Origin: an uncultured Akkermansia sp.
GTDB lineage: Bacteria > Verrucomicrobiota > Verrucomicrobiia > Verrucomicrobiales > Akkermansiaceae
DNA length: 64,000 nt
Assembly: GCA_947601655.1 (NCBI GenBank)
Contig: CANQGG010000005.1
Span: forward strand, 4,309-68,308
Direction of reading: 5' to 3'
Position 1 is the first letter of the stretch; each line of letters starts with the position of its first letter. The notes beneath the pieces are model-generated. The model did no database searches. It worked only from the letters and a program-made list of their open reading frames with translations, and was not told where the DNA came from. Shown in pieces: positions 13,630 to 30,044 of this stretch. The translations under genes were made by a program, and so were the position numbers.

Positions 13630-13644
13630 AAGAAGAAAGAAAAA

Positions 13645-15031: not shown

Positions 15032-15058
15032 CATCTTATCGCATGGCAACAAAAGTAC

Positions 15059-15087
15059 TTGTTTATAAGACATAAATTCGGTATACT
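15059..15087 (+). promoter_or_regulatory. Promoter of the first ape-like operon
   Basis: TTGTTT-17-TATACT. Confidence 0.6.
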
Positions 15088-15174
15088 ATGGCAGATAGCT
15101 TGGGCACGGTCTGCGCTCGGTCGAGTCAGGGCTCACTCCACTTGTTTCGGTTTTGTTCATTAAGGCAGGGTATC

Positions 15175-16317
15175 ATGAAATCCGTTATCATCGAGGACGT
15201 GCAAATGGTGTGTCACGTGGGCGACACGCCGACCCATGTACTTGAAGTCCTGCAAAGCGGAAAAATACCGACCATGGATACCGAGGTAGTGGGAGGGCGC
15301 AATGTTCCGGTAGCCCATGTCCACACACCGCTACCCACCCCGAAGAATCCCATCTTTGCCACTCGTACCAATGCATTGGTGCAATACTGCGCGGAACGCT
15401 TGTCCACCACCCACCTGAATGTTGCTCCGGAGAGAATTGGTGTGGTGCTGGGCAGCAGCAACGCCGGAATTGAAGAATTCCACTCCGCCTACCGGAACGG
15501 CCCCTTGGCAGAAGAAGACTGGCAGCGCCTAGAACCCGGCAATGTTTCTGCCTGCGTGGCAGAATTCCTAGGAGCCAAGGGACCAGTGTACACCATCAGC
15601 ACGGCCTGCTCCTCTGCCGGAAAGGCATTAGCGGCGGCGGCCCGTTTACTAAAAGCCGGCGTATGCGATGTCGTGATAGCCGGCGGGGGAGATGCCTTGT
15701 GCCGCTTTGCATTGGAAGGCTTCCATGCTCTGCAACTTATCGACACCAAGCCGTGTGAACCGTTCATGCTCAACGGAGGAAGAATCAATCACGGAGAGGG
15801 GGCCGCTCTTTTCGTACTGACCTGCCGTCCTGCGCGGCGGGGAGACATCGTTCTGAGCGGCTATGGAGAAACAGCCGATGCGCACCACACAACCACCCCG
15901 GAGCCTGGTGGCGCCCAAGCTGCACGAGCGATGCAACTGGCCCTCCATATGGCCGGCAAGCAACCGGCAGATGTCGATTATATCAACATGCACGGCACTG
16001 GTACCGATGCCAACGACACCATGGAGCTGAATGCTCTTACCGCCGTGTTCGGAACGGCATGCCCTCCATGCAGCAGCACTAAACCTTTCACCGGGCACTG
16101 CCTGGGAGCGGCAGGTGCTGTGGAAGCCGCCGTATGTGTAGCCTTGTTACAGGCCGATACTGACCAATTGCCGAGAGTGGCCCCTTCTTCCATCCCCGGC
16201 GGTTACGAGGCCATCAACTTTTTTTCAAATGCCGGACGTCCTGTGCGCTGTTGCATGAGCAACTCTTTTGCCTTCGGCGGCAACAATGTATCTCTCCTTC
16301 TGACCCGCCATGACTGA
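15175..16317 (+). CDS. Beta-ketoacyl-ACP synthase (ApeO-like)
   Basis: Cys-His-His triad: ISTACSS, NMHGTGT, KPFTGHCLGAAG; SNSFAFGGNN. Confidence 0.88.
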   Translation: MKSVIIEDVQMVCHVGDTPTHVLEVLQSGKIPTMDTEVVGGRNVPVAHVHTPLPTPKNPIFATRTNALVQYCAERLSTTHLNVAPERIGVVLGSSNAGIEEFHSAYRNGPLAEEDWQRLEPGNVSACVAEFLGAKGPVYTISTACSSAGKALAAAARLLKAGVCDVVIAGGGDALCRFALEGFHALQLIDTKPCEPFMLNGGRINHGEGAALFVLTCRPARRGDIVLSGYGETADAHHTTTPEPGGAQAARAMQLALHMAGKQPADVDYINMHGTGTDANDTMELNALTAVFGTACPPCSSTKPFTGHCLGAAGAVEAAVCVALLQADTDQLPRVAPSSIPGGYEAINFFSNAGRPVRCCMSNSFAFGGNNVSLLLTRHD

Positions 16318-16747
16318 CCTTCCTCCTCCGGAGAAACTGCTTCCGCACCGTGGCAACATGCTACTGGTGAAAAGCTTGGAATATGCAGACCTGAAAAACA
16401 TGCGCAGTACTGCCCTAGCAGAGCTGGGGAAAGACTGCCTGTTTTACGATCGTGGCAGAAATGGCTTACCCTCGGAAATTAGTATTGAAATCATGGCTCA
16501 GGGCGCCGGGTTGCTGTACGGCTACCGCGAATATTTGCAGGGCAAATCAGGAGGAGAATGTGCCATGATTCTCTCCATCAAGAGATACGAGATTTTCTGC
16601 GACACCATCCCTACGGATACACCGCTACGTACCACCAACGAAATCACCTCGGAGGAATACCCCATCAGCGTATGCGACTGCGAGCTTCATCTCGCGGAGA
16701 GCAATATCCTGCTTGCCCACGCAGAAATAACCGCTTACAAACCCTGA
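16310..16747 (+). CDS. Hotdog-fold 3-hydroxyacyl-ACP dehydratase subunit (ApeP-like)
   Basis: LLPHRGNMLLV, IEIMAQ. Confidence 0.8.
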   Translation: MTDLPPPEKLLPHRGNMLLVKSLEYADLKNMRSTALAELGKDCLFYDRGRNGLPSEISIEIMAQGAGLLYGYREYLQGKSGGECAMILSIKRYEIFCDTIPTDTPLRTTNEITSEEYPISVCDCELHLAESNILLAHAEITAYKP

Positions 16748-16759
16748 CCCACACCCGAA

Positions 16760-17185
16760 ATGCTTTCTATCACAGTAGAACACACTGTTGCATTTCATGA
16801 GCTGGACCCCATGAACGTGGTCTGGCACGGCAACTATGTCAATTTCTTTGAACTGGCGCGCGCGGCTCTGCTCAATAAGATAGGATTGAGTTACACGACG
16901 ATGTACAGCCTCGGCTACATCTGGCCGGTTGTGAAACTGCAATGCAAATACATACGCCCCGCACACTTGGGCCAACGGCTGACCATACAAGCTCGTATTA
17001 CAGACTACCGTGACACACTCACCATGAAATTTTCTATACACGATGCCGCGAGCGGAGAGCTCATCACCAAAGGAGAAACCATGCAAATGGCTGTATGCCG
17101 GGACACGGGAGAAAGTACGCTTGTCTCCCCCGACTGCATGGTGGAAATTATAGAAAAATACCTCCATACAGCCACGCCTGCATGA
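16760..17185 (+). CDS. Acyl-CoA thioesterase, YbgC/FadM family (ApeK-like)
   Basis: FHELDPMNVVWHGNYVNFFELAR. Confidence 0.85.
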   Translation: MLSITVEHTVAFHELDPMNVVWHGNYVNFFELARAALLNKIGLSYTTMYSLGYIWPVVKLQCKYIRPAHLGQRLTIQARITDYRDTLTMKFSIHDAASGELITKGETMQMAVCRDTGESTLVSPDCMVEIIEKYLHTATPA

Positions 17186-17937
17186 ACAGCCCTGCAGCAG
17201 CAGAGTTTCGCCCTTGTATCATCATCCCCTGTTACAACCACGGGAGAGAACTGGCAGGCTTCCTGCCGGATGTCGCCATCCATGCCCTTCCTATTATCAT
17301 TGCAGACGATGGCAGCAAGCCGGAAGAAGCCGCATTGGCTGCGGCGGCTGCCGCAGCCCAAGGCGCTACTTTTCTGCGGAGTGAAGAAAACCTCGGCAAG
17401 TGGGGAGCCATATGCCGCGCGGTAACTTACGCCACTGAGCAGGGCTACACACACGTCTTGCAGTGCGATGCCGACGGACAGCACGAATCGGCGGCCATTC
17501 CCCAATTCTGCCGTCTGGCACAGCGTAATCCAACCGCCCTCATCTGCGGTACCCCTGTGTATGGAGATGACGTTCCTAGAGCACGACTGAAAGGGCGTGG
17601 CGTCTCTAATTTTTTTGCCAAGCTCGAAACTGCCTGGGCATGTAGATTGGACACCATGTGCGGCTTCCGTCTCTATCCACTACAGCAGCTGACGGATATA
17701 TTGCGCAGAAAAAACATCATGTCGGGCATGCCGGGAGACATTGAAATACTGATACACTTCTACTGGAGCGGGTGCCGTATCATCCCTCAGCCGGTGCGCG
17801 TACGCTACCCGAAGGAGGGGCGTTCCAACTTCCGCATGCTGAGGGATAACGTACTCATCTCATGGGCCCACACGAAACTTTGCACGGCCGCACTGCTGCA
17901 CCCGTGGCGGCTGTGGAGAGCCCATAGGCCACGCTAA
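17182..17937 (+). CDS. Family 2 glycosyltransferase (N-terminal half of ApeJ-like)
   Basis: IIIPCYNH, ADDGS, NLGK, QCDADGQH, DTMCGFRLYP; ATGA overlap with thioesterase. Confidence 0.85.
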   Translation: MNSPAAAEFRPCIIIPCYNHGRELAGFLPDVAIHALPIIIADDGSKPEEAALAAAAAAAQGATFLRSEENLGKWGAICRAVTYATEQGYTHVLQCDADGQHESAAIPQFCRLAQRNPTALICGTPVYGDDVPRARLKGRGVSNFFAKLETAWACRLDTMCGFRLYPLQQLTDILRRKNIMSGMPGDIEILIHFYWSGCRIIPQPVRVRYPKEGRSNFRMLRDNVLISWAHTKLCTAALLHPWRLWRAHRPR

Positions 17938-20074
17938 GCCCCAGACAAATAGCCATACCCATATCGTGAGTCACACTGAAGGAGGTGAAGGCCAGCACTC
18001 CAAACATACACAGTGTGGTAGAGAAGGACAACCCCACTGCCACACCAGTACGAGCGTTGCGAGGCAGTCCCGCACAGAAAATGGAGTAGTCGTACCCTAA
18101 ACCAACCACCAAAAAGCAGGCCAGCACATGGAAAAGTGACAGAGGCACCCCCAGCCACGCTAATCCGGCAAACACAGATACGACACCAGCCACGGGAGGC
18201 CCGCTAATCAGCAGCGCCGCACGGAAGCCATAAAAACACAATTGTACCAGCATCCCCAGCAGAAGCACCCCTCCCAGTTGCCACATCAGCAATACGCGCC
18301 AGCGGCGTATGTGCGCCTCCAGCTCTGCAAAGCGATCTGCCGGCTGCACATACTTCCCAGCATATTCCGTCAATCGTTCCCTGTACTTGCCGGGCACCAA
18401 CACAGTGCCGCAGCGTGCATCCCACAAGGAGGCCAAATAAGCAAACGATGGGCATGCCGCAAACAGCTTATCAGGCGTCAATAGCTGCAGGGATTTCGGC
18501 AGATCTAACGGCAATTCGTCGGCAAAGCGATCAGACAACGCCTGCACCATGGCAAAGTTCTGCTGCTGGCGCGCGGCGGATGGTACCACGGAGGCTACAC
18601 ATGTGATAGGAATTCCATCCTTTGCTAAACGTTCGGCCAATTGTTCCTGCCGTTGTAACACCTGCTCTTCATTGTCGCCATGAACCAAGAGCACGCCGAC
18701 GCCTTGTTCCATACCGTTAAGTTCTGCCATTTTACGTTCCGCAGCCAACAAATCGGCAGGGGGTTCGTAAAAACTACGCAAGTCATCGCACACCGTCAAA
18801 CGGCACAATGCCAGTCCCGCCAATACCAAGGCAAGCAGCCAGGGCACCAAACCGTGCACGCGCCACCGCTGCTGTGCTTTCTCCGTAAAACGCAGCAATG
18901 CAGGCGAAACCGGCACCGGCACATGCCTCGCATACGCGCGTGGGTACACCGCAAAAATAACTAGGATGGCCGTGCATAGTCCCACCACGGATACGGTGGC
19001 TATCTGCCCCAATAAATCAATACCCGACGAGTAAAACATAGCATAGCCCAAACAACTGGTGGACAATCCCAATAGCAACGAAATCGCCAAGCCCCGACCT
19101 ACCCGGGAATCGGCATTGAGGCTGTGCGCCACCAAATAATGCACCATGTAATCCGTAGATATGCCCACCAGAGAGCATCCAAACACCAAGGCCAATATGT
19201 GCACTTCGCCATGTATGGCAACTACGGCAGCTACGGAAACCAACGCGCTGCACAACACAGTTAACACCATGATCAGCAAGCCTCGTAAGCTGGAAAACAC
19301 CCATAAAAACACAAACATGACCATCACGGTAGAGCATATGCCCAACCAACTCATGGCCGAAGAGGCGGACGAGGCCGCCAAAAATGTATGCACCGGAGTA
19401 CCGCTTATCCGGACCTCCAAGACGTGGCATTGCTCCATCAACGGCTGCAAATAACGAGCCAGCTCCGCAGGGGAACCCTGCACGGATTCCGGCAACAGCA
19501 AGGGGATGTAGCCGTAATATTTGCCGTCTCGCTGTGCCAGCAACAGATCGCCTTGGGGCACAAAGGCACCGCGCTTCAATATCGGACTCTCCAGCAAAAA
19601 AGTAGTGGCAAAGGCGTACGGATCTTCATCCGCTGCGTAGAAGCTCAACGACACAAATCCATATAAATTTGCCATACCTTCCTCGTGCAGTTCCTCAAAA
19701 CGTTCTTGCTCCAACATGCAGCGATGCCTCGCAGAAAGCAACTGAAAACGGTAGGGGCGAAAAGCCTCTTTCAATTCATCAAGGGTGCTCTTACCCAATG
19801 CAGGCTGCACCCCGGCCGGCAAATCGGCACAAAGAGAGCTCAATCGCTGCGTCACCTCTTGCTCACTGTCACCCTCTGCCAACAAATGGATTTGCCTGCC
19901 ACCGGCGCGAGCCATTCGCTCGAATGCAGCTCCACCGGGGCTGTCAGTTTGTGGCAACAGGGCCAAAAAATCAGTCTGCACATGCACACCTTTCAGCAGC
20001 AATATCACCGCTGTTGCCGTCAACAACAGCAACAACGCTCCCAGCGTACCATATCGCTGCAATTTTTCGAACAT
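17855..20074 (-). CDS. MMPL/RND-like lipid exporter (ApeM-like)
   Basis: Two repeats of TM clusters with GISTDY and GLGYDYSIF motifs. Confidence 0.8.
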   Translation of the reverse strand: MFEKLQRYGTLGALLLLLTATAVILLLKGVHVQTDFLALLPQTDSPGGAAFERMARAGGRQIHLLAEGDSEQEVTQRLSSLCADLPAGVQPALGKSTLDELKEAFRPYRFQLLSARHRCMLEQERFEELHEEGMANLYGFVSLSFYAADEDPYAFATTFLLESPILKRGAFVPQGDLLLAQRDGKYYGYIPLLLPESVQGSPAELARYLQPLMEQCHVLEVRISGTPVHTFLAASSASSAMSWLGICSTVMVMFVFLWVFSSLRGLLIMVLTVLCSALVSVAAVVAIHGEVHILALVFGCSLVGISTDYMVHYLVAHSLNADSRVGRGLAISLLLGLSTSCLGYAMFYSSGIDLLGQIATVSVVGLCTAILVIFAVYPRAYARHVPVPVSPALLRFTEKAQQRWRVHGLVPWLLALVLAGLALCRLTVCDDLRSFYEPPADLLAAERKMAELNGMEQGVGVLLVHGDNEEQVLQRQEQLAERLAKDGIPITCVASVVPSAARQQQNFAMVQALSDRFADELPLDLPKSLQLLTPDKLFAACPSFAYLASLWDARCGTVLVPGKYRERLTEYAGKYVQPADRFAELEAHIRRWRVLLMWQLGGVLLLGMLVQLCFYGFRAALLISGPPVAGVVSVFAGLAWLGVPLSLFHVLACFLVVGLGYDYSIFCAGLPRNARTGVAVGLSFSTTLCMFGVLAFTSFSVTHDMGMAICLGLSVAYGLSTAATGAAVRPCKVSCGPMR

Positions 20075-20682
20075 CAAATCTTAAAAGGTTCTGAGGGTAC
20101 TTTTTGCCCATGTTTTACAGACTTAAATTGCACAACAACGTGGCCTTGGCACGCAGATTCGTACTCCACACGGCATACATTCCCCTTTTCCACCTCCACC
20201 AACAACATGTGCAAATCCATTTCCGCACGCCTGGCCTGCAAGCCCAACACTGTTTTATCCCCACTCATGCCGTACGTTACGCGGAAAGCTCGCGTAAGGT
20301 CTTCCAACTTCTCCGGGGCAGCGCCGTCAAAAAAAACGGTTGTGTATTGTGCCGCAGGACTACCGGATAAATCGGTGCGCCTTAATTCCTGACCTTTAGA
20401 TCCATAGAGCACTAAACTTTCTTTAGAAATAATCATGGCGTTCCGCACCGGCGACTCCGTACGCCACATCATCCCCACGCCACGGCGAAATTCAAAGGTA
20501 CCCCGGCTGCGCAATACACGCCCTGACGGCATGATACGCACTTGCTCAAAACAGGCCGTGGTGTACGGGGCAAAATTAAAATCGGCATGCAAGCGTTCAA
20601 AGTTGCGTACCTCTGTCGTGGGGAACCCCGTCGGCATCGCTACCGATGCACCTGCACATAACAGCATTAAAAAAAATTTCAT
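20074..20682 (-). CDS. LolA-like outer-membrane lipoprotein carrier (ApeL-like)
   Basis: Signal peptide; FEQVRIMPSGRVLRSRGTF, GMMWRTESP. Confidence 0.72.
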   Translation of the reverse strand: MKFFLMLLCAGASVAMPTGFPTTEVRNFERLHADFNFAPYTTACFEQVRIMPSGRVLRSRGTFEFRRGVGMMWRTESPVRNAMIISKESLVLYGSKGQELRRTDLSGSPAAQYTTVFFDGAAPEKLEDLTRAFRVTYGMSGDKTVLGLQARRAEMDLHMLLVEVEKGNVCRVEYESACQGHVVVQFKSVKHGQKVPSEPFKI

Positions 20683-21590
20683 GCCCAATACGAATAAAAG
20701 TTAAACCAATTAGCGGGGTAAAGCAAGCACCACTCCTCCAGCGTATGCACAAATTCATGGGCAAGCTGAGCAGTTTTAGCGCCGCCTCTCTCTCGGCTCA
20801 GGCAACGCACATGCAAATCGTACATTCCGCAATGTTCAGCCAAGCAAAATGTAAAGACCGGGCAGCGCAAAGCCGCAGCCCAGCTAAAGCAGCCACGGGG
20901 AAAAGCAGTTTTGCACCCCAAGAAAACTTCTTGCAACTCTGCACGTTGTCCCTCCCGCCACAGGCGATCGCCGGCCATCACCACAATGGCTCCGGCCTCC
21001 AGCTTCTGCGCCATCAGAATCGACATCCCTACCCCAAGCCCATGCACGTCGTGCACGAACAAATCGCTGCAGCTGGCATAGCGGCTTTGCATGCGCATAA
21101 ATACCTCGGTAGCGGCCGTATCCATGAATACATGAACTTCGCCTCCGCCTTTTTGCGCAGGCTCTGCAAAAAGCACACGCAACATATCAAAACAGCCCAA
21201 GTGAGACGCTATGCAAAATACCCCTTCGCCGCGGCGGTAACACCCCATGAGCTCCTGCGCTGCCTCGGGGGTGCAAATACGCACGCGCTCCCGTTCAAAC
21301 AGGCCCATGCGGCAGGCCAAGCGGTCTGCTATGGTGTATGCAAAGGTCAATAAATGGCAAAACGAAGAACAGCCGCGCCGCCCGGTATAAACGCGCCATT
21401 GTTGCAAAAAAGAAGCAGACGCTCGTCTTGCACGACGCAAAAACGGGTACGCAAACAGCATTACCACCCACACCAAGCAACGGCATGCGCGTTGCCCCAA
21501 ACAGCGGTATACCCACATAAGCAGTGAAATGCCCACTTTGCACACCGGCACCTCACGCTGGGAGACAGCACTGGCTAACTCCGCCGACAT
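20679..21590 (-). CDS. LpxL/HtrB-like acyltransferase (C-terminal half of ApeJ-like)
   Basis: ASHLGCFD (H-X4-D), MAGDR, FPRG, WFNFY. Confidence 0.8.
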   Translation of the reverse strand: MSAELASAVSQREVPVCKVGISLLMWVYRCLGQRACRCLVWVVMLFAYPFLRRARRASASFLQQWRVYTGRRGCSSFCHLLTFAYTIADRLACRMGLFERERVRICTPEAAQELMGCYRRGEGVFCIASHLGCFDMLRVLFAEPAQKGGGEVHVFMDTAATEVFMRMQSRYASCSDLFVHDVHGLGVGMSILMAQKLEAGAIVVMAGDRLWREGQRAELQEVFLGCKTAFPRGCFSWAAALRCPVFTFCLAEHCGMYDLHVRCLSRERGGAKTAQLAHEFVHTLEEWCLLYPANWFNFYSYWA

Positions 21591-22648
21591 TGCAAAAGGG
21601 AATACTGGTATTTACCCAATGCATGCCATTCGTCACAGAGGCTCAACCCTGCTTCGTGCACACATTCAGTCATTTCTGAGGCAGTGTAAAACTTGCTGTT
21701 ACCATTAGCCATGCAGGTGAAATACAGGGAGCCCTGAGCGAGAGAATAGGCGGCGGCTTCAAATGTTTGCTTGTCAATAAAAGGCTCTGCAATAAAAATG
21801 GAGCCCCCGGGGGACAAAGCTGCCGCAGCTTTACGCAAGATGCTCACTATTTGTTCGTGCGAGAAACAATCCAAGAATTGAGACATCCACACCACTGTGG
21901 CACCACTCGGCCATGCGGCATCGCTAAGCACATTAACGGAAGCGAAACGGCAATGCTCCCCTGCCCAAGCCAGATTTTTCTGCGCCATGGCGTTCTGCTC
22001 GGGTAAATCTATAATAGTTACAACGGATTCGGCAGATTGCTCCAGCAGTGCACGAGCAAACTTGCCAGTATTACCGCCTACATCAAACACCAGACTCAAA
22101 TCCGCATGGGCTCTCATCAAGCTAATCGCCTCTGCGAAAAACGCATCGGAGTACAAGTGATCAAAAGCAAACCAACTGGAACGTGCCGGCTCCGGTAGTT
22201 GAAAAAGGCCTTCATATATCGTCGGCCAAGCGCCAAATACCTCCAGCCCGCAGGGGCGAGACTGTTCCAGCGACTCGCCCAATCGCTCCGCCCCCGCATA
22301 GCACACATCTGCCACAAAATTAAAATTGCGACTTGTCATTTCGTCCTCCACGAGACAATACGCCACATCGGTGGCTGTCACCTCGCCCTGTGCATCCTCC
22401 GCCAACACCCCGGCCGTCACCCCGGATTCCACCAACACATCGGCCACATAACGCCCGTATTTCTGCTGCAAATCGCGACGGCTGCAGCCATTACATGCCA
22501 GCAAATGCTTCAGCATACCCAAACGCATCATCGCGCGAACAGACTGAAAGACAAGAGGTCCAAATGCAATACGCTGCGCATCGGCCAATGCTCTGATCAT
22601 TCGGGGAGGGGTATGTCTGTTTCGGTAGTTCCTCAACATGGGTAACAC
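21575..22648 (-). CDS. SAM-dependent methyltransferase (Methyltransf_2-like)
   Basis: FDVGGNTG, IDLP, WMSQFLDCF; GTG start 6 nt after TTGAGC-17-TACGAT. Confidence 0.85.
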   Translation of the reverse strand: MLPMLRNYRNRHTPPRMIRALADAQRIAFGPLVFQSVRAMMRLGMLKHLLACNGCSRRDLQQKYGRYVADVLVESGVTAGVLAEDAQGEVTATDVAYCLVEDEMTSRNFNFVADVCYAGAERLGESLEQSRPCGLEVFGAWPTIYEGLFQLPEPARSSWFAFDHLYSDAFFAEAISLMRAHADLSLVFDVGGNTGKFARALLEQSAESVVTIIDLPEQNAMAQKNLAWAGEHCRFASVNVLSDAAWPSGATVVWMSQFLDCFSHEQIVSILRKAAAALSPGGSIFIAEPFIDKQTFEAAAYSLAQGSLYFTCMANGNSKFYTASEMTECVHEAGLSLCDEWHALGKYQYSLLQCRRS

Positions 22649-23126
22649 ATTTGTATCGTAATATGGGCTACAAACTTGCTCAAAATTTGTACCACAACTT
22701 GGTTACTTCTTCAAGTGCATTCATCTGGATTGCCTTAATAATACGGTCACTGGATTGCCACTCTTCGTGAGTCTTGACAATATGAGAAAAGCAGGATGCC
22801 TCATAAATCAGACATGAGCTCATTCTCATATCATTCAAAATGAGCGAACAAACAATCTAAAGCTACTCGCTTCCAATGAAATAAAGCACAAAAAAACTTC
22901 GGTAAGCGTTTTTTGAAGAAATGCGGCAGGGCAAACGCATTAGGAAATGCGTTTGCCTATGTACGATTTGGGGAGTTCCCGCGCGAAGCGCGCGAATAAT
23001 TTTGCGAAGAGCGCTTGTTGTCATGATTTTTGATGCGTGTAAACGATCATATCAGTCCATAAGATCATTTTCTCTGTTGATCAAATTCTCTCAAATGCGT
23101 TTGCCCCGAGGAATGCGGCACGGAGG

Positions 23127-23155
23127 TTGACAAGGCACATGTGTGATGTTACACT
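23127..23155 (+). promoter_or_regulatory. Promoter of the ACP operon
   Basis: TTGACA-17-TACACT, 10 nt before the ATG at 23166. Confidence 0.8.
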
Positions 23156-23165
23156 CCTGCGTACC

Positions 23166-23438
23166 ATGACAGACTCAACAGAAAACCTTATCAGCGAGCT
23201 TCAGAAGCTCGTGGTAGAGGCTCTCGACTTAGAAGATATTTCCCCCGAAGAAATTGGTGCGGATACTCTGCTTTTCTCTGATAACGGGCTGGGTTTAGAT
23301 TCCATTGATGCCATGGAGCTGGGTGTGGCGCTTAAAAGACGTTATAAAATAACGATCAACGCCGAAACCGAAAATGTGGACCAACATTTTGCCACATTGG
23401 CCTCACTTGCAACCTTCATCCGTTCTCAAACAAACTGA
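23166..23438 (+). CDS. Acyl carrier protein 1 (ApeE-like)
   Basis: GLGLDSIDAMELG phosphopantetheine site. Confidence 0.9.
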   Translation: MTDSTENLISELQKLVVEALDLEDISPEEIGADTLLFSDNGLGLDSIDAMELGVALKRRYKITINAETENVDQHFATLASLATFIRSQTN

Positions 23439-23474
23439 ACGCCTGCCAACAACTTACACCGCGATAGCATAAAG

Positions 23475-23726
23475 ATGACCAACAAAGACATAGACACGTA
23501 CGTGCGCACGCTGCTGGAGCAAAATTTTGATTGCGACACCAGCATTTTGAACAACGAGACCAACCTGTTCGAGACCTACGACTTAGACAGCATTGATGCC
23601 GTGGATCTGATTGTAGAAGTACAAAAGAAGTACGCTGTCAGCCTCTCTGCGGAGGATTTCAAGGGCATCCGTAACTACGGTGAGTTAATAGACGTCATCA
23701 CCAAAGCCGTAGCTAAGGCAAACTGA
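23475..23726 (+). CDS. Acyl carrier protein 2 (ApeF-like)
   Basis: YDLDSIDAVDL. Confidence 0.9.
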   Translation: MTNKDIDTYVRTLLEQNFDCDTSILNNETNLFETYDLDSIDAVDLIVEVQKKYAVSLSAEDFKGIRNYGELIDVITKAVAKAN

Positions 23727-23734
23727 CGCGGCAC

Positions 23735-24304
23735 ATGCGCCTTGCGCTCAAAATAGTAGCCATACTTGCCATGGTACTCTACCCACTTCTTATATTGTGG
23801 GTTTTGTATTATCAGCGTGAACACCTACCGATAGCATGTTTGGTTGGTATAGTTGTGCTGGTGACTGTTGCCCTGCTGTGCCGGAACCGAAGCAAGCGTA
23901 AGATGCTAATAACGCTGACTGCATTGCTAATACTGGGGGCTGTAAGAATATCCGACAACCCGCAGTATTTCAAGCTGTACCCTCTGATGATATCCGGCTT
24001 ATTGCTGTTTCAATTTGCGTGGTCTCTTCGTTATCCGCCCAGCATGATAGAGCAATTTGCCCGACTGGCACAACGCGGCATAAAGCTTTCCCCGCAAGCC
24101 TGTGCCTACTGTCGCAAGGTGACGTGGGTTTGGGTGGGATTTTTCTGCCTCAACATCGCGCTCTCTGCCCTAACCGCGCTTTACGACAGCTGGGGGCTGT
24201 GGGCTCTTTACAACGGTGGCATTTCGTACGTGCTTATTGGCCTGCTAATGGGCGGAGAATGGCTGGTACGCCGCTACATGCAAGCCAAAACGGCAAATAA
24301 ATAA
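23735..24304 (+). CDS. COG4648-type membrane protein (ApeG-like)
   Basis: YP...SMIEQFARL, YCRKVTWVW, WALYNGGISY, GEWLVR. Confidence 0.8.
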   Translation: MRLALKIVAILAMVLYPLLILWVLYYQREHLPIACLVGIVVLVTVALLCRNRSKRKMLITLTALLILGAVRISDNPQYFKLYPLMISGLLLFQFAWSLRYPPSMIEQFARLAQRGIKLSPQACAYCRKVTWVWVGFFCLNIALSALTALYDSWGLWALYNGGISYVLIGLLMGGEWLVRRYMQAKTANK

Positions 24305-24314
24305 AAATCCAGCC

Positions 24315-26009
24315 ATGATTCTTCCCTCCGCCTATTTTCGAGCGTCCATACCGACAGACCAGGCGGTTTTCCGTATTAAAAACCGCACCATCACTCACCG
24401 GCAATACAGGCAACATACGGAGCAACTAGCCCACGTACTCGCCCAAATAAAGTCGCAAACAGTGGCATTGATGACGGAAAACAACTACTTCTTCGCTGTA
24501 GCGCTCATGGCGGCGTTGCACGCCGGGCTCAACATCATCCTCCCCGGCAACATCTGTGCCGCCACTGCTCAAAAGCTGCAAGAAGAAGGGGTCATCGTGG
24601 TATCGGACCTCGCTTTAACCGGAGCCATCCCCATTTGCGGGCATCAAAATGCCGGGCACTCCCTGCCCGCATTTGCACCGGCCTCTGCCCACCTGTGGTT
24701 TTATACCTCCGGCAGTAGCGGCGAGCCAAAACGCATTCACCGCACCTTTGCCAATTTGGAAGAAGAGCTTCGGTTGCTGCAAGACATTCTGCCGGAAGGC
24801 GAAGAGGCCGAGGTATTCTGCACGTCGTTTTTCCACCACGCCTACGGCATTATTTTTGGTTTACTGCTGCCGCTGAGCCGGGGCATCTTGTGCGATACGG
24901 CGGCGTTTGTCTCTCCGGTAGATTTCCTGGCGCGAGTTGATAAACTTACCCCGCCCCGAACGCTGGCATGGGTAGTAACCACACCCTCCTTCATCCGAGT
25001 CTGGGCAGCCAACACAGATCTATGCAAGATTAGCCCGCGCCCCTTACGTATTCAATGTGCAGGGGCACCGCTCCCTATGGAGGCGGCAGCACACATTCAA
25101 CGCAAGACCAATGCCACGTTTGTGGAAATTTATGGCAGCTCAGAAGCAGGTCTTGTCGCTCATCGCAACCCACTCGCCACCCGAGAATGGACGCCTTTTC
25201 GCGGAGTAGCACTCACCCCTTCCGCCGATGGAAGCATGTGCATTGACAGCCCTTGCATCCCTCCGGGCGAGCATGCATACCCCGGCGATAATGCCCAATT
25301 GCTACCCAACGGCAATTTTTTACTGCTGCCACGGACCGACAACGTGGTAAAAATTGCAGATAAACGCATTTCATTGTGTGAAATAGAGCAGCACCTGGAG
25401 GACTCCGAGTTCGTAGAACAAGCTGCTGTCTTGAAACAAGAGAGAAAAACGCGCTCGATTTTGGCTGCGGTAGTAGTGCCCACCCCTGCAGGTATGGGGC
25501 TTTTGCGCCAACAAGGAGGCCAAGCCTACCGCAAAGCCCTTGCCGGGCATCTGGCCCAGCGTCTGCCCGCCGTGCTTATCCCAAAAAAATGGCGTTTCAT
25601 GGGCAATATGCCTACTAATTCTCGTGGAAAAACGGACACTGCAACACTTCATCGATTATTCGACACCAAAGACTATTTACCGGTGCTGACCACCTTAGAC
25701 GCCACTCCTGAACGCTTGGTTGTTAAAGCTCTCTATCTAAAAGACAGTCCGTGGGTGGCGGGGCATTTTCCGGGGCGTCCCATTGCTCCCGGTGTTCTTA
25801 TCTTGTGCAGCCTTTCCACGCTAACAAAGCAGCATTGGGGTACAGACATTCGCTGCATTCAACGGATTAAATTCAATAATCCCGTGGTTCCCGGAGACGA
25901 AGTGTACCTCATTCTCAGACGCAGAGAAGAACGGCTGAACGTTCTGCTGAGTCGCACGCCCGATGGCAGCACCCCTGCTTGCAAAGGCATTTGCCATTTG
26001 GCAAACTAA
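24315..26009 (+). CDS. AMP-dependent acyl-ACP synthetase fused to a C-terminal FabA/Z-like dehydratase (ApeH+ApeI-like)
   Basis: FYTSGSSGEPK, EIYGSSE, PKKWR; C-terminal GHFPGRPIAPGV. Confidence 0.82.
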   Translation: MILPSAYFRASIPTDQAVFRIKNRTITHRQYRQHTEQLAHVLAQIKSQTVALMTENNYFFAVALMAALHAGLNIILPGNICAATAQKLQEEGVIVVSDLALTGAIPICGHQNAGHSLPAFAPASAHLWFYTSGSSGEPKRIHRTFANLEEELRLLQDILPEGEEAEVFCTSFFHHAYGIIFGLLLPLSRGILCDTAAFVSPVDFLARVDKLTPPRTLAWVVTTPSFIRVWAANTDLCKISPRPLRIQCAGAPLPMEAAAHIQRKTNATFVEIYGSSEAGLVAHRNPLATREWTPFRGVALTPSADGSMCIDSPCIPPGEHAYPGDNAQLLPNGNFLLLPRTDNVVKIADKRISLCEIEQHLEDSEFVEQAAVLKQERKTRSILAAVVVPTPAGMGLLRQQGGQAYRKALAGHLAQRLPAVLIPKKWRFMGNMPTNSRGKTDTATLHRLFDTKDYLPVLTTLDATPERLVVKALYLKDSPWVAGHFPGRPIAPGVLILCSLSTLTKQHWGTDIRCIQRIKFNNPVVPGDEVYLILRRREERLNVLLSRTPDGSTPACKGICHLAN

Positions 26010-26812
26010 GGTCGAGATTCTCCGCAAGGCTCCCTCTGTTCATTCGCTCCCGGCACTTCTAAAATGCAGGCGGCTGTTTGTTGAGACAAACGTACGGCCG
26101 CGGCATGATGACTTTCCCCCGGTTGCACATCGGCATGTATCGGGGGGAGCATATTAAGGCTAAAACGAGGACAATGCTCTCCCACATACCACCAAGGGTA
26201 TTCTTTGGTAAGAAACGGCATATCCGTTTGGATGCGAATCGGCTGTAAGGGAGCCCCTGTCAACAAGCTCATATGAAAGGCACCGCGCTGCATGTGACTT
26301 TTAACCCCGGGTGTGGTGCGTGTTCCCTCAGGGAAAATGATGATGTTGAAGCCTTGCTGCAGGCATTTTTTTGACTGTTGCAAGAAATATGAGATATCCC
26401 CATTATTGATGATACAAAGTCCCCGCAAAATGGGGCGCAAAAAGCGCCAACGCAGCAATTTAGGTTTAACCACCAACTTACAACCGGGTATAATGGATGC
26501 CAAAATCACCACATCAATCAGCGAAGGATGGTTGGTCACCACAATGGAGTTCCGTAACTGCGCCATTTTAGCACGCTCCGGTACATGCAGGGATAAATTG
26601 CGTGTTACCCGTAACAACAAGCACATCAGCTTCCAGGACCACTGCAACACACGCATCCCCACCAACACACGGCACCGCTCATTCAAAAAGGGACTCACCA
26701 ATAAAAGAAACAAGGAGATACAAGCTCCTCCCACACCAAAGCACACATAGTCCAACACCGCCAGCACGCAACGCACCCGTGTGGACAAACTCATGGGCGG
26801 CACCGGTTTCAT
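26006..26812 (-). CDS. 1-acyl-sn-glycerol-3-phosphate acyltransferase family (ApeD-like)
   Basis: NHPSLID, FPEGTRT. Confidence 0.85.
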   Translation of the reverse strand: MKPVPPMSLSTRVRCVLAVLDYVCFGVGGACISLFLLLVSPFLNERCRVLVGMRVLQWSWKLMCLLLRVTRNLSLHVPERAKMAQLRNSIVVTNHPSLIDVVILASIIPGCKLVVKPKLLRWRFLRPILRGLCIINNGDISYFLQQSKKCLQQGFNIIIFPEGTRTTPGVKSHMQRGAFHMSLLTGAPLQPIRIQTDMPFLTKEYPWWYVGEHCPRFSLNMLPPIHADVQPGESHHAAAVRLSQQTAACILEVPGANEQREPCGESRP

Positions 26813-27366
26813 ATTTGCTGCAAAAGTTCATTCACCGTATGAGGCAATGGTCGCAAAACGCTATGGGATTCAAGCACTACCGCAACGGCACTCACGACTT
26901 CCTGCTCCATTTGCTGTTCGTCGCCATACACAAACAGGCAGGGGCCATCGGCACTGCGTAAAGCGGCCTCAAACATCCCCATTCGCAAGGTATCTTCGCC
27001 CGCAGCCAAGGTGGTACTATTATCGCAATTGCCGGTTACCAAACCCAACAACGAAGCCGGGGCATTGTGCACCGACACAGAAAAACCGGCGGGCGACATC
27101 TCCCCGTATTGCTCATATTCAGCAAACAGGTTCAAAGTTCGGGCTATCTCACCATAGCGGCTGGCATACACCACCGGGTACTGCAACACCTCCTCGCCCA
27201 CAACCGCCGCCACACGAGAGACGCAACTAAGCACAGCACGGCTCAGGCGACTCATACGCCGTGGCAAACTCTTAGGCAAAGATGCCATCGGCGGTCGTTC
27301 TGCCGCATCGCCCGGTTGCCAAACCTCGGCATGCCGCACACGGTATGGAAGCATCAGCTCGGCCAT
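26809..27366 (-). CDS. Ketosynthase chain-length factor (ApeC-like)
   Basis: RRMSRLSR, ASRYGE, SPAGFSVSVHNA; no catalytic Cys. Confidence 0.82.
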   Translation of the reverse strand: MAELMLPYRVRHAEVWQPGDAAERPPMASLPKSLPRRMSRLSRAVLSCVSRVAAVVGEEVLQYPVVYASRYGEIARTLNLFAEYEQYGEMSPAGFSVSVHNAPASLLGLVTGNCDNSTTLAAGEDTLRMGMFEAALRSADGPCLFVYGDEQQMEQEVVSAVAVVLESHSVLRPLPHTVNELLQQI

Positions 27367-28583
27367 CTGCGGAATATCAAGCTCGTATTGATGCCACCAA
27401 AAGCGTAGTTATTGTTCATCACATACTCCGCATCCAAACAGCGTCCCGGACCGGTGATATAATCCAGCCCGACACACTCGGGATCCAGCTCGTGTAAATT
27501 GAGGTTCGGATGGTACCACCCCTCGCGCATCATCATGATGCTCACCATAGACTCCAACGCACCGCAGGCGCCCAGCGTGTGCCCGGTGTATCCTTTCACC
27601 CCAGAGGCAGGCACAGCATTCTCAAACACAGATCTTGTGGCTATTGCCTCTGCGCTGTCTCCCGTCCTAGTGCCTGTTCCGTGCAAGTTGATATACCCGA
27701 TGTCCTCAGGGGACAAACCGGCCATTTGCAAAGCCTCCATCATGGCACCCTTCATCGTTTCGGCATTGGGGGACGTGATATGGGTCCCATCGGAGGTATA
27801 GCCAAAGCCCACCACCTCGGCGTAAATACGGGCCCCTCGGGCCTTGGCATGCTCCAGCTCCTCAAGCACCAGGGTGCAGGCTCCCTCGCCCAACACTAAG
27901 CCGTCGCGATCCTTGTCGAAGGGCGCAGGCGTACTCTCAGGACTCTCATTGCGTGTACTGGCGGCAAACAAAGCATCAAATACCGCCAACGCCAGCATAT
28001 TACAACGCTCTGCACCGCCGGCCAACATCACATCTTGACGCCCCATGCCAATAGCCTCGTATGCCGTGCCGATGGCCACACTGCCCGAAGTACAAGCCGT
28101 ACTGCTGTTGATGATGCGCCCTTTTGTCGCAAAGAACAGAGAAATATTTACCGCGGCTGTATGCCCCATCAACTTCACGTAGGTGCTGGAGGTGATCTCG
28201 CGTGCATTCTTCTCTTTCAACAACTTCACACACGGATCAAAGGCCGACATAGAACCAATGCAAGACCCATATGCCACGCCCGTGCGACTACTGCCTATAA
28301 CGCCATCCCCCAATAGCCCGGCGTCCGCCAAGCTACGGCGCGTGCAATCTACCGCCATTACTGAAAGAGAGGACATGGTGCGCAACTGCTTGCGCGTAAA
28401 ATCCGCGGGCGGAGCATAGTTCGACAATGGGGAATATAGGTACGAGCGCAGGCCTTGGTACGCCTCCCAGCCCACCATGCACTGTGTTGCATTTTTACAG
28501 CTCCTCAGCGTTCGCATCATTTTCTCCTGCGTTTCCCCCAATGTAGAAATCGCAGCCATACCAGTCACAACTACCCTTTTCAC
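27354..28583 (-). CDS. Beta-ketoacyl-ACP synthase II (ApeR/FabF-like)
   Basis: STACTSG, NLHGTGT, KGYTGHTLGACG, NNYAFGGIN; GTG start. Confidence 0.9.
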   Translation of the reverse strand: MKRVVVTGMAAISTLGETQEKMMRTLRSCKNATQCMVGWEAYQGLRSYLYSPLSNYAPPADFTRKQLRTMSSLSVMAVDCTRRSLADAGLLGDGVIGSSRTGVAYGSCIGSMSAFDPCVKLLKEKNAREITSSTYVKLMGHTAAVNISLFFATKGRIINSSTACTSGSVAIGTAYEAIGMGRQDVMLAGGAERCNMLALAVFDALFAASTRNESPESTPAPFDKDRDGLVLGEGACTLVLEELEHAKARGARIYAEVVGFGYTSDGTHITSPNAETMKGAMMEALQMAGLSPEDIGYINLHGTGTRTGDSAEAIATRSVFENAVPASGVKGYTGHTLGACGALESMVSIMMMREGWYHPNLNLHELDPECVGLDYITGPGRCLDAEYVMNNNYAFGGINTSLIFRRWPS

Positions 28584-29338
28584 ACCAAACCTCCGTTTAC
28601 ATTGATAACCTGGCGAGTAATATATCCCGCTCCATCCGACATAAGGAAAGATACGGCAGCGGCCACCTCCTCCGGCCGCCCAGCTCGCCGCAGCGGTATC
28701 ATTTTCTGTACATCGTCCATCGACAAATCAGCTGTCATATCCGTCTCGATAACACCGGGAGCCACACAATTCACAGTAATTTTGCGTTTGGCCAACTCCA
28801 GTGCTAGCGCTTTTGTGGCACCGATAATGCCGGCCTTAGCCGCGCTGTAATTTACCTGCCCTCGGTTCCCGATCACCCCGGATACGGAGGATATGGTAAT
28901 GATCCGTCCCCCTTGGCGACTCTGTATCATCGGCATCACACAAGGGTGTATCACGTTGTAAAAAGAATCCAAATCAGTACGCAACACCTTGTCCCACATG
29001 TGAGCCCCCATCGCGGGAAACGGAGCATCAGCCGCCACGCCAGCATTGCTTACCACACCATAATACGCCCCGTGCGCCTCAATGTCAGCTTCCAGTACGG
29101 CGCGAGCTTCCTCCCTCTTTGCCACATCAAACATCAGCACACGGCATGCCGTACCATTTGATCGCAACCGATCCGCCAAATTTTCGCAGGTCTCGCGGCT
29201 CTGCTTCGCGTGCAACACCAACGAGTATCCATCCTTTGCCAGCTTTTCCGCCACTGCCAGCCCAATTCCTCGACTAGCCCCGGTTATCAGACACCATTTT
29301 TCGTCCATCATACGAAATCTTACAGTGTCTGCTGCCAT
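28580..29338 (-). CDS. 3-oxoacyl-ACP reductase (ApeQ/FabG-like)
   Basis: TGASRGIG, SNAGV, NYSAAKAG, VAPGVIETDM; promoter TTGACC-17-TATAAC 6 nt before the ATG. Confidence 0.92.
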   Translation of the reverse strand: MAADTVRFRMMDEKWCLITGASRGIGLAVAEKLAKDGYSLVLHAKQSRETCENLADRLRSNGTACRVLMFDVAKREEARAVLEADIEAHGAYYGVVSNAGVAADAPFPAMGAHMWDKVLRTDLDSFYNVIHPCVMPMIQSRQGGRIITISSVSGVIGNRGQVNYSAAKAGIIGATKALALELAKRKITVNCVAPGVIETDMTADLSMDDVQKMIPLRRAGRPEEVAAAVSFLMSDGAGYITRQVINVNGGLV

Positions 29339-29426
29339 ACGTTCGTTATACCATGCAGTCTGATATTGGTCAATGATTTTCAGATTGAAGGATTAAATGC
29401 TGGCGCTTCTTCTCCAAAGGTCATGA

Positions 29427-29991
29427 TTGAGGCTCGCTATGAAGGAAGGTGCGGTGGGAGTCGTGACGCTGCTCAAGGAAAAGGGAATCGACCCCGGAGA
29501 ACTTCAAGTCGTGAATCCGGAGAAAATCGAGCCGCTGCTGAAACTCGGCGCCCGCATCCCCAAGGACATGACGGATCGGATCACGGAGGATTCCATACCT
29601 CTCGGACATGGTTCACGTCCCGCCAGACTCGACGAGGACTACGTTGACATCATCCAAATCCTCAAACCCACGGTTACAAACCGAATCTGATGGCATGGGC
29701 AAAAGGAAACGGCGGCGGTGGAGGTCTCAACATCAATGCTTTTCTTACGTTTTTCAAAACAGGCGAGAATCTGAATGAGACGGACGAAAACGGCAACTCC
29801 CTCCTCGGCAACTACGTTTCCTCTGCAAAATATGCGTGGAGAATTGCCCAGGTTCTGTCTGCTTTATTAAAGCAGGAGCAAAACTTAACCATAAGAACAA
29901 AGCCGGCAAATCCATCTTGCAGCTCGCGAAAGAGCATGAACTGGAGGGTCGCTTCATCGAACTCCTCAAGGAGCACGGCGCAAAAGAGTGA
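29427..29991 (+). pseudogene. Fragmented ankyrin-repeat gene
   Basis: Three frames: ...LLKEKGID...LLKLGA*, LNETDENGNSLL, then shifted KAGAKLNHKNKAGKSILQLAKEHELEGRFIELLKEHGAKE*. Confidence 0.6.
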
Positions 29992-30044
29992 GGGGGAGGC
30001 AGCCTTTCGTTTCCACGTAGCACCCCAGCGGTTTCATGCTATTT

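Follow-up and report, generated by a model that had tools for sequence, protein, structure and literature searches.

The aryl polyene (APE) lipid locus of Escherichia coli, the CFT073-type apeA-apeR cluster, is a single co-directional operon; E. coli D8 (NZ_CP010151.1, 2130824-2145845) represents it in the present comparison, with functions taken from PMC8253772, which describes ApeGLMN as conserved across APE clusters. Structures of the APE ketosynthases (KSs) are available from A. baumannii and Xenorhabdus doucetiae (7F27 for ApeR; 7F28 and 6QSP for the ApeO:ApeC pair), and mutation of Tyr135 in A. baumannii ApeR (AbApeR) reduces activity (PMC8358021). APE-type clusters with a common parts list, many of them with an ApeH-ApeI fusion, also occur in other bacteria of gut and environment (Gastranaerophilales, Succinivibrionaceae, Solimonas and other Verrucomicrobiota). 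The flexirubin (flx) and xanthomonadin systems have a type II FAS-like assembly of aryl polyenes and LolA/RND export in common with the locus described below.

The window, a stretch of 64,000 nucleotides from an uncultured animal-gut Akkermansia, carries at 15175-29338 what is very probably a bona fide, apparently functional APE lipid cluster, arranged as four short convergent/divergent operons. The cluster falls inside the already known APE family and represents no novel type of system. A Pfam and NCBIfam profile search, together with the catalytic motifs, found all sixteen of its open reading frames (ORFs) present, intact, full-length and of the types listed in the first-pass annotation, whose count of a single dehydratase was nevertheless wrong: there are two dehydratase domains, the second fused to the adenylating enzyme. 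The features are as follows.

14945-15031, plus strand: left copy of an 87-nt dispersed repeat, outside the pathway (direct repeat, 86% identity to the right copy)
15175-16317, plus strand: ApeO-type elongating ketosynthase, which pairs with the chain-length factor (PRK09185, 352 bits; 43% identity to E. coli ApeO)
16310-16747, plus strand: ApeP-type 3-hydroxyacyl-ACP dehydratase, hotdog fold (PF22817 ApeP-like, 25.8 bits; 25% identity to apeP, E 1e-8)
16760-17185, plus strand: ApeK-type 4HBT thioesterase (PF13279, PF03061; 42% identity to E. coli ApeK)
17179-17937, plus strand: GT2 glycosyltransferase, equivalent to the N-terminal half of E. coli ApeJ (PF00535)
17855-20077, minus strand: ApeM-type RND/MMPL transporter (weak MMPL and HpnN matches; 28% identity to E. 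coli ApeM, 545 aa)
20074-20688, minus strand: ApeL-type LolA-like periplasmic carrier (PF03548 LolA, 39 bits; weak similarity to E. coli ApeL)
20679-21590, minus strand: acyltransferase, equivalent to the C-terminal half of E. coli ApeJ (29% identity over 298 aa, E 6e-28)
21575-22648, minus strand: ApeB-type SAM-dependent methyltransferase (NF053543 FlxJ, 342 bits, missing the cutoff of 560; PF00891; 42% identity to E. coli ApeB)
22649-23126, no strand: divergent intergenic region that separates two of the four transcription units, with the lowest GC in the block
23127-23438, plus strand: ApeE-type ACP (NF006617 PRK09184, 77 bits, above cutoff; 49% identity to E. coli ApeE)
23475-23726, plus strand: ApeF-type ACP (PF00550; NF003757, 65.9 bits; 37% identity to E. 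coli ApeF)
23735-24304, plus strand: ApeG-type (COG4648-like) membrane protein, 189 aa (41% identity to E. coli ApeG across 106 aa, E 7e-21)
24315-26009, plus strand: ApeH-type adenylating acyl-ACP synthetase (residues ~1-450) fused to an ApeI-type dehydratase (~469-552) (PF00501, PF13193, PF07977, PF22818)
26006-26812, minus strand: ApeD-type PlsC/LPLAT acyltransferase, HX4D at residue 95 (PF01553; 35% identity to E. coli ApeD)
26809-27366, minus strand: ApeC-type chain-length factor, 185 aa (PF13723, 105 bits; PDB 6QSP_B, 7F28_A; best match in the E. coli locus, apeC)
27354-28583, minus strand: ApeR-type homodimeric ketosynthase (NF006587 PRK09116, 589 bits, cutoff 470; 51% identity to E. 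coli ApeR)
28580-29338, minus strand: ApeQ-type 3-ketoacyl-ACP reductase, FabG2 (TIGR01831, 379 bits, cutoff 339; 61% identity to E. coli ApeQ)
30127-30213, plus strand: right copy of the 87-nt dispersed repeat, outside the pathway, 727 nt past the end (29400) of the block shared with G149, a genome introduced below

Two proteins have no Pfam match: the 189-aa membrane protein, which resembles ApeG, and the 303-aa protein resembling the C-terminal half of E. coli ApeJ, which matched no NCBIfam model either and carries an HX4D-like motif, HLGCFD, at residue 130. Within the E. coli ape locus the top match of each of the sixteen proteins is the expected gene, the counterparts being ApeB, C, D, E, F, G, H and I (fused), J (split in two), K, L, M, O, P, Q and R, so that 16 of the 18 E. 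coli functions are shared, at protein identities of 25-61%. The GT2 protein, which shows 39% identity to the stretch of ApeJ that positions 9772-10485 of L134 encode, lies in a frame open from 17095 with its likely start at the ATG at 17179, and the ApeE-type ACP has an uncertain start codon, either TTG at 23127 or an ATG 39 nt downstream. The catalytic motifs are intact, including the Ser/Tyr/Lys of the ketoacyl reductase (KR), the DSID serines of the ACPs (residue 59 in the ApeE-type protein), HX4D in both acyltransferases, and TSGSSGEPK, YGSSE and GHFPG in the fusion protein, which combines 30% identity to E. coli apeH with 35% identity to apeI.

The assignment to the ape type that the first-pass annotation had proposed is borne out by this gene-for-gene match to E. 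coli apeB-apeR and by the condensing enzymes: for both KSs and the chain-length factor (CLF), the PDB matches to ApeR, ApeO and ApeC, which are the best in the structural database, far exceed those to FabF/FabB. The ApeR-type KS (Cys-His-His triad C164/H301/H335) scores 462 bits against 4EWG and 422 bits against 7F27 (AbApeR), with FabF at most 256, and the ApeO-type KS (triad C145/H273/H308) scores 221 bits against 7F28_B and 203 bits against 6QSP_A, with FabF at most 161. The CLF matches the ApeC structures weakly (41 and 31 bits) and lacks about 55 aa relative to E. coli ApeC, a difference that counts against the APE reading. A placement of the KS and CLF outside the APE clades was looked for and not found: in the KS tree all ApeR-type sequences, including E. 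coli ApeR, form a 100/100 clade separate from FabF, within which those of Akkermansia, 15 in number, group in a 100/100 clade of their own. Cys164, Tyr135 and Phe202 of AbApeR (PMC8358021) are all kept in the Akkermansia enzyme, and the aryl-stacking Tyr135, which is Ile or Val in FabF, is invariant across the 15 Akkermansia copies. The ApeR-type KSs of Gastranaerophilales, Succinivibrionaceae, Solimonas and other Verrucomicrobiota are 49-56% identical to that of Akkermansia, and the gene order of their clusters is different.

It is scarcely credible that the locus belongs instead to a neighbouring family, be it flexirubin/dialkylresorcinol, xanthomonadin or the ladderane-like PVC clusters. 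The methyltransferase and KR are related to those of flexirubin and xanthomonadin, and together with the LolA-like protein they score on the flexirubin models FlxJ, FlxB and LolA2, but these scores are sub-threshold, and no protein of the cluster reaches the cutoff of a flexirubin-specific NCBIfam model, whereas the NCBIfam equivalogs PRK09116, TIGR01831 and PRK09184, which are generic for APE clusters, all pass theirs. DarA/DarB, TAL, a radical SAM enzyme, a desaturase and, as the first-pass annotation had stated, a halogenase were not found in or beside the block; the cluster also lacks the XanB2-type chorismatase, and its parts correspond one for one to E. coli apeB-R.

The cluster also differs from its E. 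coli counterpart. ApeH and ApeI are joined in a single 564-aa protein, the two halves of ApeJ are the GT2 protein and a separate acyltransferase encoded on opposite strands, four convergent/divergent units replace the single operon, and the host lacks UbiC. The comparison with apeA-R found in the cluster neither the ApeA lipoprotein nor ApeN (a LolB-like DUF3261 protein), both present in E. coli, and this absence, like the Pfam matches of ApeP and ApeI that fall just under their gathering scores, counts against the APE reading. Both clusters are alike in having no enoyl reductase (ER), PPTase or starter-forming gene. If the missing ApeA and ApeN are taken with the loss of ApeM, ApeL and ApeG in the related species G017, which shows that decay happens in the genus, the locus could be regarded as a silent or decaying relic that yields no product in this host. 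Such a relic is improbable, because its ORFs are full-length with catalytic motifs intact, its proteins align to their orthologues in G149 (a rabbit-gut MAG from a distantly related Akkermansia species) with 97-100% coverage and 86-97% protein identity, overlapping stop/start codons are preserved, and a KS protein of identical sequence is present on 7 contigs drawn from several samples.

For a functional APE lipid cluster, we infer the chemistry, starter acid, anchor and physiological role by homology with E. coli and Xenorhabdus. The ApeH half of the fusion would activate an aromatic acid and load it onto the ApeE-type ACP, by analogy the starter carrier, after which the ApeR-type KS and the ApeO:ApeC KS-CLF pair would elongate it with malonyl units, each beta-keto group being reduced by ApeQ and the products dehydrated by the ApeI domain and ApeP. 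Because no enoyl reductase is encoded in the block (by its ORF list and the Pfam/NCBIfam profile search), the expected outcome is a conjugated polyene. ApeB would methylate the ring and ApeK release the chain; ApeD, the GT2 protein and the ApeJ-C acyltransferase would attach it to a (glyco)lipid anchor; and ApeG, ApeM (RND) and ApeL (LolA-like) would transport the product to the outer membrane, where APE lipids may quench oxidants.

The aryl starter in this scheme is assumed, because the genome, a MAG of 94.9% completeness whose missing 5% might hold a starter-forming gene, encodes no pathway to 4-HBA, 3-HBA or 4-coumarate that could be recognised. UbiC (PF04345), the Rv2949c-like lyase (PF01947), the FkbO/XanB2-type chorismatase (PF21168) and PAL/TAL (PF00221) are absent genome-wide by a profile search in which the positive controls matched, so that the earlier observation of no ammonia-lyase or chorismate lyase holds for the whole genome. 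It is possible, if rather unlikely, that the same machinery serves another chemistry, with a starter other than 4-hydroxybenzoate such as an aromatic scavenged from the herbivore gut (e.g. a plant phenolic) or a non-aromatic acid, in which case the product would be unlike known APEs. These absences speak for such a starter, as do the adenylating domain's mere 30% identity to E. coli ApeH and the variant-B clusters of the genus, adjoining which no starter gene was found either; but a gene's absence from a MAG carries little weight, a classical APE would result if 4-HBA itself were taken up, and both the strict conservation of Tyr135 and the presence of an ApeB-type ring methyltransferase favour an aryl head group.

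The cluster is core neither to the genus nor to the family. It is present in 15 of 154 Akkermansia species representatives (~10%), with A. muciniphila lacking it, in none of 16 sampled genomes of the same order, and phylum-wide in 25 of 401 species at an identity of at most 56%. The literature agrees with the first-pass annotation in that no described APE product from the Akkermansia lineage was found there. The antiSMASH 'arylpolyene' region of A. muciniphila ATCC BAA-835 (1,642,673-1,683,848; PMC6828834, PMC9315967, PMC11559365) was considered as the same cluster and rejected, since it shares only the genus and the antiSMASH label and is a non-homologous locus elsewhere. It holds a single divergent KS, whose partial alignments with the two KSs of the window show 27-31% identity, beside an SDR, an Acyl_transf_3 protein and a class I/II aminotransferase; it has no CLF, ApeR, ApeH, ACP, LolA or MMPL, and no ApeR orthologue was found in A. 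muciniphila.

The first-pass annotation had also called the cluster acquired, an outcome that stands on grounds other than the two it gave. The block is literally more AT-rich than its flanks (53.1% against 55.3% GC), but trivially so: the genome has 54.1% GC (sd 3.1%, windows of equal size), and 30.5% of its windows are at or below the cluster value. The block is also literally repeat-bounded, with homology to the G149 cluster beginning directly after the left copy of the 87-nt repeat, at 15032. This repeat is ruled out as an island-specific attachment site because at least 11 good copies are dispersed through the genome and it was not found at the junctions of the near-identical G149 cluster copy, and as a dispersed element it has no weight as a cue for acquisition.

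Acquisition is supported instead by the patchy distribution, the cluster-less sister species and the comparison with G149. The cluster DNA of G149 and of the window's genome (G000) is 89.9-92.8% identical over 14.2 kb and in every one of the 16 genes, even those with little conservation (MMPL, LolA), while about 210 bp of the divergent intergenic region (22899-23108) do not align. The ppk genes of the two share 69.1% identity at the DNA level and 71% at the protein level, and the genomes about 72-74%, with a median of 72% in a 200-kb sample in which 1% of the aligned fragments reach 89.9%. Because the cluster identity of 90-93% far exceeds this genomic level and the G149 copy sits between different flanking genes, recent transfer within the genus is indicated, the G000 cluster having been exchanged recently with G149 or both copies having come from a recent common donor. 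The argument is built on MAGs, in which contigs may be mis-binned; both cluster contigs have Akkermansia housekeeping flanks.

A purely vertical history, in which the cluster was ancestral to part of the genus and repeatedly lost, and in which purifying selection produced the likeness between G000 and G149, would be consistent with the monophyly of the Akkermansia copies, with the 12 variant-B species, which largely follow the ppk tree, and with a KS identity between variants A and B (65-73%) in a range similar to that of ppk (63-66%). Against the high identity of all 16 genes and the differing flanks it is nonetheless highly improbable, as it is against the trees: in that of ppk, G000 pairs with the cluster-less G042 and G149 with the cluster-less G046, and the G000-G149 distance is 0.08 for the KS as against 0.70 for ppk, compared with 0.49 and 1.01 for G000-G017. 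The recent movement is thus within the genus, whereas the phylogeny points to a single entry of the cluster into Akkermansia, long ago, because the Akkermansia copies are monophyletic (100/100) on a long stem, of length 0.47 in the KS tree, and no close donor of this clade was found among ~185,000 species genomes.

The ORF listing and translation of the window give 16 intact ORFs at 15175-29338, which are arranged as four short units, and within each of these units the stop and start codons overlap.

Gene units of the cluster
15175-17937, forward strand: unit 1, KS-DH-TE-GT2
22648 down to 17855, reverse strand: unit 2, MT-acyltransferase-LolA-RND
23127-26009, forward strand: unit 3, ACP-ACP-membrane protein-adenylase/DH
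29338 down to 26006, reverse strand: unit 4, KR-KS-CLF-PlsC

The protein types that the first-pass annotation had assigned to the 16 genes are borne out by agreement with Pfam and NCBIfam profiles. A check of the catalytic motifs found all of them in place: both ketosynthases (KSs) have the Cys-His-His triad, the KR has Ser/Tyr/Lys, each ACP has its DSID serine, both acyltransferases have HX4D, the adenylating enzyme has motifs A3 and A5, and the hotdog domains have their His motifs. The gene list in that annotation had a single DH, but the cluster holds two dehydratase domains, one of which is a C-terminal fusion on the adenylating enzyme. Among the NCBI models for a "second FAS-like" cluster, PRK09116 (KS, ApeR-type; 589 bits, cutoff 470), TIGR01831 (FabG2, KR; 379 bits, cutoff 339) and PRK09184 (ACP; 77 bits, cutoff 70) score above their cutoffs, and PRK09185 (KS; 352 bits) lies under its cutoff of 407. 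The chain-length factor (CLF) at 26809-27366 scores 105 bits with PF13723, and the ApeP-like and ApeI-like hotdog domains score slightly under their Pfam cutoffs, with apeP and apeI as their top E. coli matches. A 303-aa and a 189-aa protein have no Pfam match at E up to 10, and it took an alignment to E. coli ApeJ and ApeG themselves to place them. The promoter and terminator scan of the region was uninformative, the promoter counts being no higher than in shuffles.

When all 16 proteins are compared with the annotated ape locus of E. coli (strain D8), which encodes an aryl polyene (APE) pathway, the top match of each is the expected gene.

Matches of the cluster proteins in the E. coli ape locus (amino acid identity)
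KS at 15175-16317: ApeO, 43%
DH: ApeP, 25%
TE: ApeK, 42%
GT2: N-terminal half of ApeJ, 39%
303-aa protein (no Pfam match): C-terminal half of ApeJ, 29%, E 6e-28
RND transporter: ApeM, 28%
LolA-like protein: ApeL, weak
MT: ApeB, 42%
ACPs: ApeE and ApeF, 49% and 37%
189-aa membrane protein: ApeG, 41%
564-aa protein: ApeH and ApeI, 30% and 35%
PlsC-like protein: ApeD, 35%
CLF: ApeC, 29%
KS at 27354-28583: ApeR, 51%
KR: ApeQ, 61%

The only E. coli genes left unmatched among the cluster ORFs are apeA (a lipoprotein) and apeN (DUF3261, LolB-like). Of the export module, the cluster ORFs include orthologues of ApeG, ApeL and ApeM, and the same ORFs gave no match to ApeN/DUF3261. The two loci share the lipid-attachment proteins ApeD, ApeJ and ApeK, with ApeJ split into two genes in the Akkermansia cluster; the FabG2-type ApeQ and the ApeI/ApeP pair, with no enoyl reductase; and, as predicted from motifs that include those for AMP binding, the two tandem ACPs (ApeE, ApeF) together with the adenylating acyl-ACP synthetase ApeH.

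Structural matches and phylogeny agree with this assignment. The ApeR-type KS scores 462 bits against PDB entry 4EWG and 422 bits against A. baumannii ApeR (7F27), compared with 256 bits or less for FabF; the top PDB matches of the ApeO-type KS are the ApeO chains 7F28_B and 6QSP_A; and those of the CLF are limited to the ApeC chains of 6QSP and 7F28. The KS at 15175-16317 and the CLF at 26809-27366 are therefore predicted to form an ApeO and ApeC heterodimeric KS-CLF pair. The first-pass annotation had named a position of the KS and CLF outside the APE clades, for example among ladderane or other FAS-like types, as evidence against its reading, and this is not what the comparisons show: in a maximum-likelihood tree every ApeR-type sequence, that of E. 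coli among them, groups in a 100/100 clade separate from FabF, within which the 15 Akkermansia sequences, that of the window among them, form a nested 100/100 clade, and the genome's own FabF falls outside. In ApeR, Tyr135 stacks on the aryl group, and its mutation lowers activity in A. baumannii (PMC8358021). Both Y135 and F202 are kept in 15/15 Akkermansia ApeR copies, and position 135 is Ile or Val in FabF-type enzymes; Phe202, with which Tyr135 stacks in ApeR, is universal and so does not discriminate between ApeR and FabF.

Two related pathways were rejected on gene content. For flexirubin, the TAL (FlxA; PF00221) was not found in the genome, the block has no extra ORFs for DarA/DarB, and the flexirubin models score under their cutoffs (FlxJ 342 against 560, FlxB 270 against 340, LolA2 16 against 125); the ladderane reading was rejected on the same kind of grounds. 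The cluster is, as the first-pass annotation had proposed, of the ape type; it is a canonical and, from its sequence, apparently functional member of a very widespread known family, which the finding extends without opening a new one.

Genetic studies in E. coli (PMC8253772) and structural studies (PMC8358021) allow a pathway to be proposed by analogy. An aromatic acid would be adenylated by the ApeH domain and loaded onto the ApeE-type ACP, after which malonyl units would be added by ApeR and by ApeO:ApeC, with reduction by ApeQ and dehydration by ApeI and ApeP. None of the 16 cluster ORFs is ER-like, either in Pfam and NCBIfam or in the comparison with the E. coli locus, and because an enoyl reductase is lacking from the cluster the product is expected to be a conjugated polyene. 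Methylation of the ring would fall to ApeB; the chain would be freed and joined to a lipid or glycolipid anchor by ApeK and ApeD together with both halves of ApeJ, and ApeG, ApeM and ApeL would carry the product to the outer membrane. The product expected of the family is a yellow aryl-polyene carboxylic acid linked to a lipid of the outer membrane.

The first-pass annotation had also described the block as acquired, more AT-rich than its flanks, and bounded by repeats. The difference in composition is there as measured (53.1% GC in the block, 55.3% in the flanks), but it fails as a cue to acquisition, since 30.5% of same-size genome windows have a GC content as low as that of the block or lower, and GC as an island signal was rejected on comparison with the genome mean of 54.1% (sd 3.1% for same-size windows). 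The block does lie between two directly repeated 87-nt sequences (14945-15031 and 30127-30213, 86% identical), but these repeats were rejected as att sites because they are dispersed and are missing where the near-identical cluster of G149 joins its flanks, G149 being another Akkermansia species, represented by a rabbit-gut MAG. The genome has at least 11 copies, which are 79-89% identical; three are in the window (4459-4541, 14945-15031, 30127-30213), all on the forward strand, and the pair closest to the cluster is found 113-144 nt upstream of two forward-strand genes, those for the ApeO-type KS and for ppk, the right-hand flanking gene. The repeat is a dispersed intergenic element rather than an island boundary; it has no Rfam family and is possibly a lineage-specific mobile element of a promoter-like or MITE-like kind. 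A tRNA and then a tmRNA lie upstream of the cluster (4648-5132, with the tmRNA at 4773-5132), as does a small SRP RNA at 13644-13739. Because most of 5482-13791 is common to G042, an Akkermansia species without the cluster, in rearranged order, the cluster does not belong to an ssrA-linked island. The stretch from the KR gene to ppk holds a pair of small ORFs next to each other at 29427-30046 (87 and 118 aa; no Pfam match at E up to 10), which look like remnants of a decayed ankyrin-type gene; close to the variant-B clusters of other Akkermansia lies an ankyrin-repeat gene that is intact (L099:293-2149).

The claim that the pathway was acquired is upheld by its patchy distribution and by a comparison of the cluster with its surroundings, in which all genomes are MAGs. 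Counted at E <=1e-90, 15 of the 154 species representatives in Akkermansia have an ApeR orthologue (10 of the 107 of high quality), as do 25 of 401 genomes across the phylum, the latter with identities of at most 56%; the 16 genomes sampled from the same order have none. The top matches beyond the phylum (Gastranaerophilales, Solimonas, Succinivibrionaceae) are 52-56% identical, as are those in other Verrucomicrobiota, and a search for a recent donor outside the genus gave no candidate. The Akkermansia clusters have two gene orders: variant A, in the window, in G149 and in a third species, G017, and variant B, in which the half from ACP to KR is inverted, in 12 species that mostly make up one clade in the ppk tree. 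The copy in G017 (4007-9657 of L086, from contig C57) keeps the biosynthetic genes without ApeM, ApeL and ApeG, and its gene content identifies it as a putative natural export-less variant or a decaying copy.

The window cluster aligns to the G149 copy over 15032-29400 with a DNA identity of 89.9-92.8%, whereas the ppk genes of these genomes share 69.1% identity as DNA and 71% as protein. Of 200 one-kb fragments sampled from G149 (200 kb in all), only 97 align to the genome of the window (G000), with a median identity of 72%, and only 1% of those reach 89.9%; the genes beside the G149 cluster correspond to other G000 contigs at 70-87% identity. In the ppk tree G000 pairs with G042 (ppk protein 90% identical, about 80% genome identity) and G149 pairs with G046, and both of these sister species have FabF only, with no ApeR orthologue. 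The tree distance between G000 and G149 is 0.08 for the KS and 0.70 for ppk; between G000 and G017 it is 0.49 and 1.01. The simplest reading of these sequence comparisons is that of a patchy accessory cassette, mobile within Akkermansia, which would have entered the genus once long ago and been lost many times, and of which a 14.4-kb block would recently have been exchanged between the two species or received by way of a shared donor. No integrase or transposase was found at the cluster borders, and an empty-site test with the flavodoxin-like gene and ppk as flanks gave no clean empty site, the flanks in G042 being on separate contigs in rearranged contexts. Identity between G000 and its nearest relative G042 is itself a mosaic (L082/L083), about 78-81% over most of the window region and 91-96% at adjoining segments matching G000 contigs C46 and C52, which suggests frequent recombination among these Akkermansia species.

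The source of the aromatic starter is a requirement of the pathway rather than a feature of the cluster, because in E. coli too it sits outside the cluster. Known supplies are 4-HBA via UbiC, 3- or 4-HBA via XanB2, and coumarate via TAL. In the 94.9%-complete genome, with named control genomes positive in every search, UbiC (PF04345), the Rv2949c-type chorismate lyase (PF01947), the FkbO/Hyg5/XanB2-type chorismatase domain (PF21168) and the aromatic ammonia-lyases (PAL/TAL; PF00221) were not found, so the earlier remark that the block has no ammonia-lyase or chorismate lyase holds genome-wide. The cluster neighbours in other Akkermansia species are housekeeping genes only (QueC, CysS, a GDSL lipase, a radical SAM protein). 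Given both results, uptake from outside may supply the acid, an enzyme of an unrecognised type may make it, or the gene may be in the 5% of the genome that the MAG lacks. It is conceivable, but rather unlikely, that cluster-bearing Akkermansia have no aromatic starter of their own and build the lipid from phenolic acids that come from plant material eaten by the host or from microbes nearby, the pigment being diet-dependent and the cluster a 14.4-kb cassette moving between species in animal guts. If this were true, any antioxidant or immune-modulating effect would also depend on diet, and the head group could differ from those of all described APEs.

No BGC family is more widespread in Gram-negative bacteria than that of the APE clusters, and Akkermansia, a candidate probiotic genus, has been studied intensively and has envelope lipids that act on host immunity. 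An APE cluster of this kind is carried by about 10% of Akkermansia species, none of which is A. muciniphila, and this gene-based potential pinpoints the lineages that could make an oxidant-quenching outer-membrane pigment. As the first-pass annotation had supposed, no product is known from the lineage: a literature search found no paper on either the cluster or what it makes in Akkermansia. Counts of arylpolyene calls by antiSMASH in MAGs of gut Verrucomicrobia have been published (PMC9769736), and "one arylpolyene BGC" has been reported from antiSMASH in A. muciniphila (PMC6828834, PMC9315967, PMC11559365). From sequence comparison, that region is assigned to a different locus from the APE cluster. 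In the type strain it spans 1,642,673-1,683,848 and centres on a single divergent KS of 404 aa, which is 27-31% identical to the window KSs in partial alignments, and no other ape functions are present within 10 kb on either side. The "arylpolyene" label on A. muciniphila genomes thus refers to an unrelated single-KS locus, and a recurring annotation is corrected. Some modest interest is added by the patchy mobile cassette, by this difference in label, and by a starter source that is not among the known families searched in the 94.9%-complete genome. Among the ORFs at 6071-12035 of L142 (1,653,001-1,673,000 of A. muciniphila ATCC BAA-835), the neighbours of the lone KS are an SDR, an Acyl_transf_3 membrane acyltransferase, a 229-aa protein without assigned function, and a class I/II aminotransferase with a serine-palmitoyltransferase-like fold; the locus may represent a separate lipid pathway.
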